A stretch of 32,000 nt of DNA from a virus, in the IMG/VR virus record IMGVR_UViG_3300014963_000841, positions 7,481 through 39,480 of that record; one strand, given 5' to 3'. The notes below the pieces were generated by a model. The model made no database searches. It was not told where the DNA came from and worked only from the letters and a program-made list of their open reading frames with translations. A program made the translations under genes and the position numbers. Below, in pieces: positions 7,478-26,586 of the stretch. Each line of letters opens with the position of its first letter. Position 1 is the stretch's first letter.

Positions 7478-7778
7478 TTAGCTCACCTCTTTTCAATCTG
7501 ATTGCGCCCTTAATCGGTGCGTCAATGCGTTCGATAGGGTAATATTTCTTGCCCTCGTATAGAGCGTAGTCGAATGGCTTCTGCTCTTGACTAAATCGGC
7601 ATATCATGACCACGTCTGACCTACTCCCATAGGCTTCAAAGACACGTTGTTGATCAATGAAGTTAACCAAACAAGGCACAATCTTACTAGACTGTGCCTT
7701 TTCTTCGTGTTTATCAGTTATCGGGTTGTAAGTCGAAACGCCTTGATTCACTAACTTGATGCGGTGCGGTGTTTTCAT
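7470..7778 (-). CDS. Head closure / head-tail adaptor protein
   Basis: 102-aa ORF in the connector gene block. Overlapping starts and stops indicate translational coupling. Confidence 0.55.
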   Translation of the reverse strand: MKTPHRIKLVNQGVSTYNPITDKHEEKAQSSKIVPCLVNFIDQQRVFEAYGSRSDVVMICRFSQEQKPFDYALYEGKKYYPIERIDAPIKGAIRLKRGELNG

Positions 7779-14269: not shown

Positions 14270-14686
14270 TCAACGTTCCACAACTAATTTGCCATCTCTA
14301 TACAATTCTGCAAATGCTAGGATAGCATTATTTAGCAATCCTTGAAAGGCTGTCCTTTCGAATCCGATTGCTTGGGCAATTTGCCAGTTTGGTTTCGGTG
14401 GGTATGCCAGATATTTCTCTATCAGTATTCTGCGATAGTCTGGACGATATAGCCCACTAACTGCTTGCTCTATGGCTTCTAGCTCGTTCATAGCATCGAC
14501 ACGCCTAACTGCGATATTTTCCACTGGTCTACTCACTCCGCTGCCACCTCTTGGCATAAAAGTGAACTCTTGTGTAATCTTCTGCTCAGCGCTATCGTGT
14601 GCTATCTCTCGCCAGCGTGGATATTCTCGAAGTTTCCGCTTGCAACCTCTGATAGTTGCTTTCTCATCAATTTCCGGCAATAGCAT
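14270..14686 (-). CDS. arpU: ArpU-family late transcriptional regulator
   Basis: 138-aa ORF directly upstream of terS. The segments KRKLREYPRWREIA and LIEKYL resemble the ArpU/sigma-region-4-like family. Confidence 0.75.
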   Translation of the reverse strand: MLLPEIDEKATIRGCKRKLREYPRWREIAHDSAEQKITQEFTFMPRGGSGVSRPVENIAVRRVDAMNELEAIEQAVSGLYRPDYRRILIEKYLAYPPKPNWQIAQAIGFERTAFQGLLNNAILAFAELYRDGKLVVER

Positions 14687-14700
14687 TGTTCTGTCCTCTT

Positions 14701-14760
14701 TGGTATAATAGTAGTGTTGACTTCCAAAGAGTGCCGGCCATTGTGTCGGTCTTTTTTGTT
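14701..14760 (+). ncRNA. Candidate short antisense transcription unit A (extended -10 plus terminator)
   Basis: TGGTATAAT at 14701-14709, a CCGGC/GTCGG hairpin at 14734-14749, then CTTTTTTGTT. It is antisense to the arpU leader. Confidence 0.3.
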
Positions 14761-14835
14761 TGGCCCAAAAAACATTAAGAAGTTTTATAAGAGAAAGATT
14801 AATGTATTTGTTTTGGGTTGTCTCTTGAGCCTTTT

Positions 14836-14847
14836 ATCACCTCCTTC
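14836..14847 (-). promoter_or_regulatory. Orphan Shine-Dalgarno-like site (GAAGGAGGTGAT) with no usable start codon
   Basis: A 12-nt match to the complement of the 16S rRNA 3' end. There is no ATG, GTG or TTG within 4-13 nt downstream. Confidence 0.4.
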
Positions 14848-15054
14848 TAGCCATCGACACCAGCAAGATCTTTGGCTTTTGATTAGTAATGCGATATCTA
14901 TGAGAAAGAGGGTGTTTCACATCCTTTTTTCTTAAATTTGCTGGGTTTTGTTTGAGCAAGGTCTGTCAGCTTGCTCAGTGTTGAAAAGTGTCCAAGCCAC
15001 TAAAAATCTATATATTTATTTAGCTTCATTTTTTTAGTGTATTTGACAGACAAT

Positions 15055-15095
15055 GACTGGCAAGAGGAATCGAACCTCTTATAACCATTCCAGCC
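15055..15095 (-). ncRNA. tRNA-like minihelix E2 (acceptor-like stem plus canonical T-arm; no D or anticodon arms)
   Basis: The minus strand reads GGCTGGAA-TGGTTATA-AGAGG-TTCGATT-CCTCT-TGCCAGTC. It has G53, a T54-T55-C56-R57-A58 loop and C61-type geometry. Confidence 0.45.
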
Positions 15096-15392
15096 TAGAC
15101 ATAGTGAAATCATTATCGGGGATATTCCCCTTTCGTTTTTTGAAATAATACAAGAATTAAGTCGGTGAATTATGGAGATTTCTGACCTATATCTACTTGC
15201 AGGCATAAGCCTTGAATAATCACGCCACCAGTAATGCGTTTTAGATTTTGTGAATAATAAATAAAGGAATACCTACTTTCTATATTTTAGATTTACTGGA
15301 TTTGGGTAGCATCAACGACCAGTCACGCTTCTGCCGATTTGAATGAAAAGAAATCAAAAGGCTCCTCTTTTCTAATATATATTGACTGGTAA

Positions 15393-15434
15393 TAGCTAGC
15401 GAGGGAGTCGAACCCTCATAGACCGTTCTAGCTA
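15393..15434 (-). ncRNA. tRNA-like minihelix E1 (acceptor-like stem plus canonical T-arm; no D or anticodon arms)
   Basis: The minus strand reads TAGCTAG-AACGGTCTAT-GAGGG-TTCGACT-CCCTC-GCTAGCTA. It starts in the stop codon of ORF 15432..15638. Confidence 0.45.
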
Positions 15435-15638
15435 CACGCCTAACGCATAGGCTTTATATAAGGCTTTTCTAACCGTGGTCTTATTACGCCCCACCTCGCC
15501 TTTAGTTCGGTACTCAAGCATAATTCGATCAGCATCATCATCCAGTCTATCGGGCCAATCGTAGTTATTGAAGACATAATCAACGATTTTGCTGAATAAG
15601 TCTCGTGACAGCATCCCTTCCATTTGAATAGCCTTCAA
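15432..15638 (-). CDS. Hypothetical early protein, sharing a module with the middle of ORF 15663..16139
   Basis: In this 68-aa ORF, MEGMLSRDLFSKIVDYVFNNY aligns with LEGIISVELFNDLQDYLSTNY of the upstream gene. Confidence 0.5.
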   Translation of the reverse strand: MKAIQMEGMLSRDLFSKIVDYVFNNYDWPDRLDDDADRIMLEYRTKGEVGRNKTTVRKALYKAYALGV

Positions 15639-15662
15639 AGGCGTTAGGGCGGCTTTCTCTGC

Positions 15663-16139
15663 TTAGCAACAATTGATGGCGTTTTGGACTTTGTTAGCTT
15701 GCTTCTTATCGCAACCTTTAATGTCTCTGATGTACTTGTTTAGGTCGTTAGGGTGTTCCTTGCGTAGTCCTTCCACTTCCTCCCGGAATCGCTTAAACAG
15801 TCCCTCTGGCAGTCCTGCGTTGATTTTATCCAAAAATGGGCGCGTGGTTTTACCTCTTGTGTAATTAGTAGACAGATAATCTTGCAGGTCGTTGAATAGT
15901 TCAACGGAAATAATGCCTTCTAGTCTATCGACAGTCGCTGGCGATAGACTCGCACGTTCAACGACTGCGCTATTAAACGCTTGATAAATGATACGTGCTT
16001 GTAACTCACTGCACTGTTTCACATCTTGGAAGAACCGCTTATAATCTCTCGGGTGTGCTTTCCTCAGTGATGCATGCTCGCTGACTAACCGTTGATATAA
16101 TTCTGGTGTCAGCCCTGAATATTGGTATGTTTTACTCAT
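15663..16139 (-). CDS. Hypothetical early protein with an internal duplication
   Basis: The 158-aa ORF has two ~47-aa repeats: LYQRLVSEHASLRKAHPRDYKRFFQDVKQC... and LFKRFREEVEGLRKEHPNDLNKYIRDIKGC... Confidence 0.55.
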   Translation of the reverse strand: MSKTYQYSGLTPELYQRLVSEHASLRKAHPRDYKRFFQDVKQCSELQARIIYQAFNSAVVERASLSPATVDRLEGIISVELFNDLQDYLSTNYTRGKTTRPFLDKINAGLPEGLFKRFREEVEGLRKEHPNDLNKYIRDIKGCDKKQANKVQNAINCC

Positions 16140-23519: not shown

Positions 23520-25251
23520 CTTCGTTATATTTTTTAAAGCTCAATGTAAAACCTGCGATACCAACAGCGATAACTGCTAGACCAAGAGTTGACATGATAC
23601 CCTCTTTTTCACCAGTATGTGGTAGAGTACCACCGTAAACGGCTGTTTTAGGTGTCTCTTTGCTCACTGGTGCGAGGTTATAAGATACTGTGGTAGATTG
23701 CTCTGCGCTCGTTTTAGAGGCTTTTTCTGGCGTGCTAGGTTTTTCTGGTGTTGGCTTAGTTGGTTCCTCTGGAATTTCAAGCTCTGGCAAGTCCAAGATA
23801 GGGGCATCGTTTGGCACCACTCCACCTTCAAATGGTGGGAGCTCACGTTCTTCTGGAATACCCGGAATGCCACCTTGAAACTCTGGCTTGTAATGCACTG
23901 GAGCTTCATTTGGCACTGTCCCGCCATTCCATTCTGGTTTATCCAAAACTGGCGCATCGTTTGGTACAGTTCCGATAGGCACAGTATACTCCGGTAATTC
24001 TCGCACCTCTGGAATACCGGGGATGCCGCCCTCAAATTCTGGGATGTCAACTTTTGGTGCGTCGTGCGGAATTTCAAAGGTTGGTTCTGGCTTGTTTTCA
24101 CCGCTGGCATCACCACGTCCGCCTACTAATTGCACCTTAGATGTTGAGATAGCCCCAGCATCTACCGCTACCAATGTAGCCTTGTTCGTTGGGTTAGTTG
24201 AGTCTTTAACCGCTGACTTCAAGCGAGTTTGATAGTCGATATACATGATGCGGTTGAATTCCTTGAATTTTGCATCGAACCCGTCTGCTCGGACATTCCA
24301 GCTTTCAAGATAATCCTTGGCTGAGTGGTCAATACCAGTCCACTTGATAGGGTCTTCAACGAAATAGATGTTTTGTGAGCCTTCGATAAACTCTTGGTTG
24401 TCTGACCAAGTATCAGAAAGAACAGCGTTATTCAAGACTTGGCGGGCTGTGTTAAGGCGTAGCGTCCAGTTAATAACCTGTGGGTCTTGCTTATTTTGGC
24501 TGCCCCATTTAGACAAGAGCTCGTTGCTTGGAAGTGGCCCTTCCTCTGCAATCGTGTAAGTCTTAACTGTACCGTCAAAATTGACTGTAACTGGTTTGCC
24601 CGGTGTCACTACGTCTGTCCATTTGGCATCAAACTTGAGTGACATCTTCTTATTGAGCGGGTGACTAGCGAAATAATCGTTAAAAGTAGTAGTGATCTTA
24701 CGAGCTTGAGCATCCGCATTGGCTTTACCAACGACATTCTCGTTGTTGTAAACGTCAAAGTCGAATGATGTTTGAAGCCCGATTTCTTTTGGTAGCTCTG
24801 TTACTACCTTGTCTCCCTCAGCGATAGGCATATCGTCTGGGAAGTTGATGTCTTTATACTCAACTTCGAATGGTGAGTATTTACCATTGCCGTTAGGGAA
24901 AGTAACCTCAACGTTTGGATTTTCAACGTTGATAGTAGTATCTGTTTTAGTAACTGTAGTTGCTGCTGGTGCTTCTGCAATCGGTTGAGATTCCACGGGT
25001 GCTGGTGGAGTAAATACTGGCGTTTCCGCTACGGGTGCCGCTGTTTCAGATGGTGTCACCGTAATATTCCCAGCATTGTCAGCTGTGTAGACATTAGCAA
25101 CCGCTGGTGTTTCAGCTACTAGTGCCGCTGCTTCGTCTGCTGACACTGACCCAGCTCCAATCAATAGAGCTGTAGCAAGAGCAAGTGTTCCGCACAAGCC
25201 ATAGGCTTTGCTCTTAGTGAAAGAAGGTTTTGCAATTTGTTGTGAAGTCAT
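23506..25251 (-). CDS. LPXTG cell-wall-anchored surface protein (MSCRAMM-like adhesin with Pro-rich repeats)
   Basis: Signal peptide (LALATALLIGAGSVSADE), ITTTFNDYF (similar to the TYTFTDYV motif), repeated PEF(E/Q)GGIPGIPE and VPNDAP(V/I)LD units, LPHTGE, a hydrophobic helix and a KKY tail. Confidence 0.88.
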   Translation of the reverse strand: MTSQQIAKPSFTKSKAYGLCGTLALATALLIGAGSVSADEAAALVAETPAVANVYTADNAGNITVTPSETAAPVAETPVFTPPAPVESQPIAEAPAATTVTKTDTTINVENPNVEVTFPNGNGKYSPFEVEYKDINFPDDMPIAEGDKVVTELPKEIGLQTSFDFDVYNNENVVGKANADAQARKITTTFNDYFASHPLNKKMSLKFDAKWTDVVTPGKPVTVNFDGTVKTYTIAEEGPLPSNELLSKWGSQNKQDPQVINWTLRLNTARQVLNNAVLSDTWSDNQEFIEGSQNIYFVEDPIKWTGIDHSAKDYLESWNVRADGFDAKFKEFNRIMYIDYQTRLKSAVKDSTNPTNKATLVAVDAGAISTSKVQLVGGRGDASGENKPEPTFEIPHDAPKVDIPEFEGGIPGIPEVRELPEYTVPIGTVPNDAPVLDKPEWNGGTVPNEAPVHYKPEFQGGIPGIPEERELPPFEGGVVPNDAPILDLPELEIPEEPTKPTPEKPSTPEKASKTSAEQSTTVSYNLAPVSKETPKTAVYGGTLPHTGEKEGIMSTLGLAVIAVGIAGFTLSFKKYNEGEGE

Positions 25252-25307
25252 GGTATAATCTCCTTAGTGTATTTTTTCTTGCATGGGCCCTAACCCATGC
25301 TTTTTTT
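25251..25307 (+). ncRNA. Candidate short antisense transcription unit B (extended -10 plus strong terminator)
   Basis: TTGCAA (25230-35), 18 nt, then TGGTATAAT (25251-59). The hairpin GCATGGG-ccctaa-CCCATGC (25281-25300) is followed by T7. Confidence 0.4.
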
Positions 25308-26382: not shown

Positions 26383-26523
26383 CTATGCTCCTTTCTGGTA
26401 GATGCTTGCCACGATATCGTAGTAGCTATGCCCTGCCGGTATCGTGTACTTAGTTAGATCATCAACTCTGGAACCGTCCGCCATAATGTTGATTATGACT
26501 GGTTCCCATTTTTTTCGTTTCAT
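26383..26523 (-). CDS. Small hypothetical protein (46 aa)
   Basis: My translation is MKRKKWEPVIINIMADGSRVDDLTKYTIPAGHSYYDIVASIYQKGA. AAAGGTAA lies upstream. Confidence 0.4.
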   Translation of the reverse strand: MKRKKWEPVIINIMADGSRVDDLTKYTIPAGHSYYDIVASIYQKGA

Positions 26524-26586
26524 GCTATAATTACCTTTGAATTATTTACCATAGCGGCTGACTCTGGCAGGGGTCAGCCTTTTTTG
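26523..26586 (+). ncRNA. Candidate short antisense transcription unit C (extended -10 plus strong terminator)
   Basis: TTCCCA (26503-08), 17 nt, then TGCTATAAT (26523-31). The hairpin GGCTGAC-10nt-GTCAGCC (26556-79) is followed by T6. Confidence 0.4.

Follow-up and report, generated by a model that had tools for sequence, protein, structure and literature searches.

The window, a 32,000-nt stretch of the IMG/VR virus record IMGVR_UViG_3300014963_000841 (positions 7,481 to 39,480), carries a 745-bp island at 14687–15431, flanked on its 5' side by the DUF1340 gene and on its 3' side by arpU, the gene for the late transcriptional activator. The island contains a conserved RNA element of separable modules, headed by hairpins with the shape of the top half of a tRNA. 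The existence and structure of this element are well supported, and leaders of this type are found in Streptococcus salivarius and S. thermophilus siphophages, the group to which the window, a prophage, belongs. A first-pass annotation made from the letters of the window had suspected a structured RNA here, and this is now backed by covariation, by strand-specific G·U pairs and by a canonical tRNA T-arm. The conservation and covariation that it proposed to look for in homologous regions are both present, with nucleotide conservation in the leader equal to or above that of the flanking DUF1340 coding sequence. From 5' to 3' the modules are a minihelix, an optional cassette, the motif GUCUGUCA, the r-hairpin, unit c, an orphan Shine–Dalgarno (SD) sequence and an anti-SD hairpin (Table 1). 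We read the island as a transcribed, untranslated leader that acts as RNA of the sense (minus) strand, and give this, jointly with the mechanism proposed below, slightly less than an even chance of being right.

Minihelices with a tRNA T-arm

Minihelix 1 (MH1) and minihelix 2 (MH2) share one design, in which an outer stem, a linker of about 9 nt and a T-stem lead into the loop UUCGAYU, followed by the second strands of T-stem and stem. In MH1 the acceptor-like stem has 8 bp (15435–15428 with 15399–15392), the D-loop-like linker is the 9-nt AACGGUCUA, and a 6-bp T-stem closes the 7-nt loop UUCGACU (15412–15406). Its predicted fold has a free energy of –16.5 kcal/mol (z = –2.4), compared to –13.0 on the opposite strand. 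The 5' strand of MH1 contains the DUF1340 stop codon UAG (15434–15432). The structured element therefore passes the edge at 15431 that the island had been given, reaching 15436 in the last codons of the upstream gene. MH2 has the stem GGCUGG (15095–15090) / CCAGUC (15060–15055), the linker AAUGGUUA, a 7-bp T-stem and the loop UUCGAUU, with a predicted fold of –15.2 kcal/mol vs –8.3 on the opposite strand. Its 3' strand is the CCAGTCA at 15060–15054 that the first-pass annotation had listed as a third repeat. The repeat exists, and its partner is GGCUGG at 15095–15090, not the degenerate sequence proposed 52 nt downstream. An alternative pairing of the MH2 linker AAUGGUUG with CAGUCAUU was rejected, as it breaks in the GACGGG and GGCGAG variants, whereas the acceptor-like stem covaries.

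R1, a covariance model built from one minihelix subtype, matches MH1 and MH2 and nothing else in the 32-kb window, and gives 114 matches across 88 related loci; in loci anchored on arpU the matches lie 300–750 nt upstream of that gene. The 74 distinct sequences among these matches were aligned. Pairing holds in 97.9% of cells, and both sides change in 8 of 13 pairs. Compensatory cells number 132, compared to 37 ± 14 in shuffled alignments, none of 500 shuffles being as high, and in controls with slid partners 37–52% of cells pair and compensation is near zero. The outer stem occurs as UAGCUAG/CUAGCUA, GGCUGG/CCAGUC, AGCCAG/CUGGCU, GACGGG/CCCGUC, GGCGAG/CUCGUC and CUUGUAG/CUAUAAG. By contrast with these changing stems, GG-UUCGAYU-CC, the tRNA T-arm consensus, is invariant in all copies, and the inner T-stem pairs are 100% G-C. 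A tRNA T-arm is defined by a 5-bp stem closed by G53-C61 and a 7-nt loop of the form U54 U55 C56 R57 A58 N N, and the minihelices agree with this definition. About one in ten cells is a G·U pair, which would be an A·C mismatch on the other strand, and the minihelix therefore folds on the sense strand only. G·U pairs are also frequent in the r-hairpin, the unit helices and the f:r pairing described below, and the sense folds are more stable than the antisense folds.

The linker matches the D-loop consensus A-R-Y-G-G-U in the long forms and is wholly missing from the short forms of many relatives. In a MAFFT alignment the 5' half of the minihelix aligns with the D-arm of a genuine tRNA-Lys in the S. 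vestibularis phage SVep1, where the tRNA is followed by TTACAGTCA, resembling the TTACCAGTCA that follows MH1. The minihelices are thus likely to be of tRNA origin, and we read them as tRNA-derived top halves. The SVep1 gene itself, a tRNA-Lys(UUU) at 2719–2792 of its record (L208), lies between the late-regulator region and an HNH gene.

The minihelices are neither tRNAs nor tmRNAs, since the anticodon arm is missing. They do not form a tRNA cloverleaf, the gap from acceptor-like stem to T-stem being merely 9–11 nt, and a tag-peptide open reading frame (ORF), pseudoknots and G3·U70, which would mark a tmRNA, are not found. ARAGORN predicts no tRNA or tmRNA in the window and no tRNA in 12 of 13 related loci; the thirteenth holds the SVep1 tRNA-Lys, located elsewhere. 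Rfam tRNA gives no match in 14500–15700 even at E ≤ 10. At that threshold the same region has no GOLLD, ROOL, HEARO, tRNA or riboswitch match, and the sole matches are to a Tymovirus tRNA-like element (17 bits, gathering score 40) and to 17 nt of the tmRNA T-arm (11 bits, gathering score 47).

The first minihelix of S. thermophilus phages has 12 bp and ends in a 7-nt T-loop, matching the 7 + 5 bp acceptor/T stack of tRNA. The minihelices have the shape of an RNase P/RNase Z substrate, with a coaxial helix near the ~12 bp of such substrates (13–14 bp in the window), a T-loop and a single-stranded trailer that is R-U-U or R-U-C and not CCA. After every minihelix, 3–4 nt starting with R-U precede the 5' arm of a long-range helix.

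Table 1 Features of the leader and the flanking genes, ordered by position in the window
Feature	Positions	Strand	Details
arpU, late transcriptional activator	14270–14686	–	phrog_248, E = 1e-42; same annotation in relatives
Anti-SD hairpin	14696–14731	–	CUCUUUGG (14731–14724) with CCAAAGAG (14703–14696)
Predicted antisense small RNA gene	14701–14757	+	extended –10, terminator; ~45-nt RNA
Orphan SD-like AAGGAGGUGAU	14836–14846	–	near-perfect SD, no start codon at working distance; STAB-SD-like
Unit c	14860–14945	–	CCAGCAA (14945–14939) / UUGCUGG (14866–14860); interior AAGAAAAAAGGAUG and CGCAUUACU
r-hairpin UGAGCAAG/CUUGCUCA	14953–14977	–	invariant 9-nt loop CUGACAGAC (14969–14961); fold z = –3.0
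Motif f, GUCUGUCA	15044–15051	–	3–4 nt after last minihelix in all relatives
MH2	15052–15098	–	R1 71 bits, E ~1e-16
GGGGAAUAUCCCC hairpin in optional cassette	15118–15130		on + strand followed by TTTCGTTTTTT; terminator-like
Unit b, paralogue of unit a	15228–15299	–	CCAGUAA/UUACUGG; interior UAGAAAGUAGGU
Unit a	15319–15389	–	CCAGUCA (15389–15383) / UGACUGG (15325–15319); interior UAGAAAAGAGGAG
MH1, tRNA top-half mimic	15391–15436	–	R1 34 bits, E ~5e-7
DUF1340 gene, last of early cluster	15432–16139	–	PF07067, phrog_1814

Helix-closed units and modular architecture

Three units, the first of which begins 3–4 nt past MH1, are closed by a helix of the form CCAGNNA/UNNCUGG. The inverted repeats reported in the first-pass annotation were correctly placed, with ACCAGTCA (15390–15383) and TGACTGGT (15325–15318) 57 nt apart and CCAGTAA (15299–15293) and TTACTGG (15234–15228) 58 nt apart. 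The C>A/G>T compensation between them is real, and is one instance among five covarying versions of the closing helix in relatives: three Watson–Crick, as in units a, b and c, and two wobble. The helix is unbroken in all 30 aligned units. The real third unit, unit c, is closed by CCAGCAA/TTGCTGG. CGCATTACT does occur twice, at 15238–30 and 14893–85, and the CTGGT..GTYGATG..CTA pair (15323–15306 and 14864–14846) is explained by units a and c being paralogues. The interiors of all three units share the motif UAGAAnnGAGGA. CCAGTMA has five sites inside 340 nt and 13 across the 32 kb vs 7.1 expected, and GTCTGTCA is counted 4 times vs 0.9 expected.

Motif f is complementary to the loop of the downstream r-hairpin, and across 136 unique contexts this f/loop pair is unchanged in 124 and altered only to G·U in 7. 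The r-hairpin itself had been noticed as TGAGCAAG/CTTGCTCA at 14977–14953; it exists, with a stem of 8 bp and not 9. Its stem shows at least six covarying versions, whose G·U intermediates pair on the sense strand only. One IMG/VR relative (L101) carries CUGACUGGC in place of the invariant loop. This loop is complementary to the CCAGUCA of MH2 and not to GUCUGUCA, so the two pairing systems look interchangeable.

The T-loop hairpin lies over the DUF1340 stop codon in all groups examined except SVep1: in the cos/Ltrb phages Abc2, P7631, M19, STP1 and CHPC927, the pac/ArpU phages O1205, TP-J34 and 20617, the 5093-group (SW24), the 987-group (9874) and S. salivarius YMC-2011. SVep1 has a truncated DUF1340 homologue and no minihelix, and retains only an A-run hairpin and a TGCTATAAT module. 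Every group that bears a minihelix has the identical series of downstream modules, always upstream of the regulator gene, and the architecture precedes at least four unrelated regulator genes (ArpU, Ltrb-type and others). Loops and motifs do not vary even between phage genera that share only 45–50% identity in the DUF1340 protein. Since cos, pac, 5093- and 987-group phages share the modules, any function specific to pac phages or to the binding of ArpU is disfavoured, and with it the pac, TerS or ArpU boxes that the first-pass annotation had offered as a DNA-level alternative. The leader also lacks the profile of a packaging site, which would combine a single packaging mode with an adjoining terS.

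Length varies by whole modules. Among 54 unique relatives, 14 have a single minihelix without units a and b, 8 are intermediate and 32 have the cassette of ~330 nt (about 15390–15060) that comprises units a and b and MH2. The window has the cassette, in which part of the core leader appears to be tandemly duplicated. Small modules come and go as insertions and deletions (indels), the region does not behave as one large fold, and RNAalifold finds local helices only. At the sequence level, the cassette borders in the window (15390–15052) read ATT/ACCAGUCA ... CCAGUCATT/GUCUGUCA and single-minihelix phages read CUAGCUAUU/GUCUGUCA, a precise indel with a flanking 3-nt ATT repeat; other relatives have CCAGUNA junctions.

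A separate observation concerns metagenome assembly. Sixteen of 80 IMG/VR phage contigs end inside the leader, at equivalents of 14720–14991 (L008, L011, L017, L026, L028, L029, L034, L036, L045, L046, L055, L063, L069, L071, L075 and L081). Six of the 16 end near 14975–14991, in an AT-rich variable spacer, and L081 has an end at 15407. These ends probably reflect assembly breakage at a mosaic junction. A packaging end at the cluster was considered and is not supported, as the cluster spreads over 270 nt and cos phages have the region too.

The island is non-coding, as had been proposed, since its ORFs have no family match and are not kept, despite high nucleotide conservation. Internal ORFs have no Pfam or PHROG match, and of 32 close relatives only 1, 8 and 2 have them intact. 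A 25-aa ORF that follows the SD-like motif in unit a was rejected as a gene, as were ORFs of 68, 73 and 40 aa in the region; all lack a family match, are not conserved and lose their frame. The reading frame shifts between the window and the S. salivarius phage SA-TP2 within the island, and neither in-frame conservation nor family homology is seen. The island, first described as the longest non-coding stretch, is nearly equalled by a second gap of 708 nt at 545–1252. A 57-aa ORF without an SD at 14602–14775 (minus strand, another frame), overlapping the arpU start, matches phrog_26202 (E = 4e-32); this family probably consists of over-annotated ORFs carried on conserved leader and arpU DNA.

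The arpU start region, its predicted antisense RNA gene and the flanking genes

The anti-SD hairpin covers the ribosome binding site of arpU (GAGGA 14698–14694; ATG 14686), with a fold of –9.9 kcal/mol (z = –2.4) and compensatory changes at two positions (U-A/C-G/U·G and G-C/A-U). Further upstream, relatives carry the equivalent GGAGGUGAUAA or GGGGGUGGUAAA in place of the orphan SD.

On the opposite strand lies a predicted antisense RNA gene, with the –10 element TGGTATAAT at 14701–14709, a transcription start site at ~14716, a terminator hairpin at 14733–14750 and a T6 run at 14752–14757. It was compared in 106 unique sequences preceding at least four unrelated regulator genes. TGnTAT(A/G)AT, where n is any of the four bases, is retained in 105 of them, and the spacing from –10 element to T-run is 39–48 nt. 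The gene thus has a promoter of its own and an intrinsic terminator at a fixed short distance. The terminator takes at least five unrelated hairpin sequences among relatives, and all 34 distinct hairpins are more stable on the plus strand (means –8.1 vs –2.8 kcal/mol). These features predict a conserved antisense RNA of ~45 nt whose sequence would complement the anti-SD hairpin in its 5' arm. In RNA-seq of phage 2972, an antisense RNA was found at a different place, between ORF37 and ORF38 (PMC13575424).

Two similar plus-strand cassettes occur elsewhere in the window, at 25230–25307 (TTGCAA-18-TGGTATAAT, hairpin 25281–25300, T7) and at 26503–26585 (TTCCCA-17-TGCTATAAT, hairpin 26556–26579, T6). 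Each has as its –10 element the spacer between SD and ATG of an early gene on the minus strand. Such cassettes at two early genes may point to phage-wide control by short antisense RNAs. The window has five TGNTATAAT sites vs 1.2 expected, every one of them on the plus strand. Terminator-like hairpins with T-runs number 5 on the antisense strand of 14500–15700, vs 0.9 expected; those at 14904–14930 and 15118–15130 have no upstream promoter and are less conserved in S. thermophilus phages. On the sense strand the region has no predicted terminator.

The prophage encodes its lytic genes on the minus strand, and its integrase/repressor side, at the right end, on the plus strand. Its nearest record is SA-TP2, with 86% identity across 14832–15500, and arpU with ~160 nt upstream is matched by S. 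thermophilus phages. After arpU follow terS, terL and the portal gene. The DUF1340 gene, whose intact SA-TP2 orthologue matches PF07067 at E = 7e-78, has an in-frame TAA at 15665–15663 (minus strand) where SA-TP2 has Tyr. This stop divides the 236-codon gene into ORFs of 158 and 68 aa, and DUF1340 here may be a pseudogene of a decaying prophage or a dispensable gene. In-frame DUF1340 stops are also seen in a few metagenomic relatives (L073 and L013). DUF1340 occurs in 336 phage records, all from Streptococcus, and at one locus among GTDB species-representative genomes. As to its function, a PDB sequence search yielded noise only, and a single-sequence AlphaFold model (pLDDT 46) is unusable; a better model is out of reach because the homologue search gave only relatives of ~90% identity, which is too shallow.

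Late-regulator genes form the end of the early operon (PMC3753634). TEX RNA-seq of the related phage 2972 yielded one early and one middle promoter as the only primary promoters; arpU was assigned to the early cluster and post-transcriptional processing was invoked (PMC11551762).

Proposed mechanism, alternatives and known parallels

Our favoured reading, put forward tentatively, is that ArpU is gated post-transcriptionally and that the minihelices are processing signals of the RNase P/Z type; the leader would then probably set the timing of activator production. RNase P and/or RNase Z would cut early read-through RNA at the minihelices, as in tRNA-punctuated transcripts. The neighbouring long-range helix would bury the fresh 5' end of the arpU RNA at once, and the orphan SD would shield it. 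ArpU translation would then be governed by the antisense RNA together with the anti-SD hairpin, and the combined steps would time the early-to-late switch. The minihelices probably direct cleavage because only the determinants read by RNase P and RNase Z are kept, and protection of the new 5' end is suggested by the fixed 3–4-nt spacing to the next helix and by the orphan SD.

Several points weigh against this reading. The RNase P/Z step is deduced from shape alone, the minihelices of the window stack 13–14 pairs and not 12, the D-loop-like linker is missing from the short forms of relatives, and neither CCA nor G3·U70 is conserved. The canonical T-loop could alternatively serve as a module of tertiary structure, or as a decoy for some other factor that binds tRNA. 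The cassette is missing in 14 of the 54 unique relatives, so half of the island is dispensable, and no pairing is conserved inside units a, b and c. The r-hairpin may be unable to form while f:r pairing is complete. Ltrb-type phages have no obvious anti-SD helix, and the locus is possibly decaying here, as DUF1340 is broken in the prophage.

An unlikely alternative is that the minihelices and units work as trans-acting or decoy RNAs and not as processing signals in cis. It is possible that the tRNA top-half mimics absorb a host tRNA-binding factor or a defence toxin that targets acceptor ends, and the SD-like UAGAAnnGAGGA repeats could titrate a translational regulator or 30S subunits. Consistent with this, the strict tRNA-type T-arm and the D-loop-like linker are kept even where the stems change, each closed unit repeats a purine-rich motif containing GGA and an orphan SD is present, and copy number differs among phages, as it would for sponge-like elements. 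However, the fixed site over the DUF1340 stop codon and upstream of the late regulator (SVep1 excepted) argues for a role in cis, no sense-strand promoter or terminator is predicted around the minihelices, and the partner protein is hypothetical.

We consider it rather improbable that the island acts as DNA, in packaging (pac, TerS), replication or recombination or as sites for the late activator, with the inverted repeats as protein half-sites. The invariant motifs of 7–9 nt do form inverted pairs, an AT-rich variable spacer separates GTCTGTCA from its complement, the junctions of the cassette indel fall at repeats, and the contig ends described above lie within the leader. Yet those ends are scattered and not at a single base, and the architecture is common to cos and pac phages and to ArpU, Ltrb and other regulators. 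Further, about a tenth of the minihelix cells are G·U, the wobble intermediates of the other helices pair on one strand only, and the loop is the tRNA T-loop consensus, for which we know of no DNA role.

There is also a slim chance that the minihelices are decayed relics of phage tRNAs and the repeats neutral debris of duplication, with function limited to spacing. The real tRNA-Lys of SVep1 in the late-regulator/HNH region, followed by TTACAGTCA, the D-arm-like 5' half of the minihelix and the optional cassette would fit such an origin. Neutral decay is opposed by the compensatory changes that maintain both stems in the 74 distinct sequences, by loops and motifs that stay invariant across genera at 45–50% DUF1340 protein identity and by nucleotide conservation that equals or exceeds that of the neighbouring coding DNA. 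A single large RNA of the GOLLD/ROOL/HEARO type, which the first-pass annotation had brought up, or a hidden small protein gene is very improbable and largely refuted: a long, conserved, non-coding stretch in a Lactobacillales prophage invites the idea, but an Rfam 15 scan of the window gives no match to these or any other families at the gathering score, the region is modular and indel-tolerant with local helices only, and the ORFs are unconserved and without family matches.

Returning to the processing-signal reading, we think it possible, though on the doubtful side, that streptococcal dairy and oral phages share an undescribed family of anticodon-less, tRNA-derived minihelices that serve as RNA punctuation, are cut there by RNase P/Z and, with a self-pairing leader and a 45-nt antisense RNA, form a post-transcriptional timer for the late activator. 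Literature searches returned no description of tRNA-like elements or antisense RNA at this leader site, and the compact motif is not yet in Rfam. Among biological threats to the fermentation of yoghurt and cheese, S. thermophilus phages come first; they are also a leading model for CRISPR. On the timing of their late genes, RNA-seq of phage 2972 gave too few promoters and pointed to RNA processing (PMC11551762). A tRNA-mimic leader and a predicted antisense RNA right upstream of the late activator offer concrete, mutable targets for this idea. If the reading is true, RNA, in place of a dedicated promoter, sets the early-to-late switch in all S. thermophilus phages, and the leader is a bacterial-virus example of tRNA-shaped processing signals. 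It would also show a tRNA gene shrinking to its top half while still under selection.

tRNA-like processing signals inside transcripts are known from mitochondrial tRNA punctuation, from the 3'-end module of MALAT1/mascRNA and from bacterial operons with embedded tRNAs. As in those transcripts, a tRNA-shaped element here stands between functional RNA segments, structure follows directly on the downstream RNA, and the acceptor/T coaxial helix and T-loop elbow read by RNase P and RNase Z are retained. The minihelices differ in lacking the anticodon arm and, in short forms, the D-arm, and in overlapping a stop codon; cleavage here is putative. They resemble the tRNA-like domain of tmRNA in the acceptor-type stem and canonical T-arm, in the D-loop analogue of the long forms, which has no D-stem, and in the lack of an anticodon arm; the best Rfam match of the region is the tmRNA T-arm. 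Their stem strands are 9–30 nt apart, whereas in tmRNA they are the ends of a 350-nt RNA, and they have no tag ORF, pseudoknots, G3·U70 or CCA.

In phages P1 and P7, RNase P releases the mature C4 antisense RNA from the icd-ant operon leader, and the loops of C4 pair with sites further down that transcript. The present leader is likewise a phage regulatory leader in which a tRNA-like shape may direct processing, with short invariant sequences complementary to later sites of the same RNA, before a regulator gene. The two have no sequence relation, and here GUCUGUCA pairs with a hairpin loop and not with a ribosome binding site, in a role that is predicted. Antisense control of phage regulators is known from lambda PaQ, which acts on Q, lambda OOP and P22 sar. 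Like them, the predicted RNA is short, ends at a terminator and converges into the 5' region of a key regulator, in this case the late activator; at ~45 nt, predicted from sequence, it differs in covering the anti-SD arm and not the ribosome binding site or coding sequence.

GOLLD, ROOL and HEARO resemble the island in being non-coding, conserved and linked to Lactobacillales prophages; the island has no match to their covariance models, is much smaller and is made of separable modules. Finally, STAB-SD is a 5' stabilizer in the cryIIIA leader of Bacillus thuringiensis. The versions in S. thermophilus phages are weaker (GGGGGUGGU) and the stabilizing role here is putative, but as in that leader, a near-perfect SD, AAGGAGGUGAU, is followed by no start codon and stands in a long leader, on the 3' side of a likely processing site.

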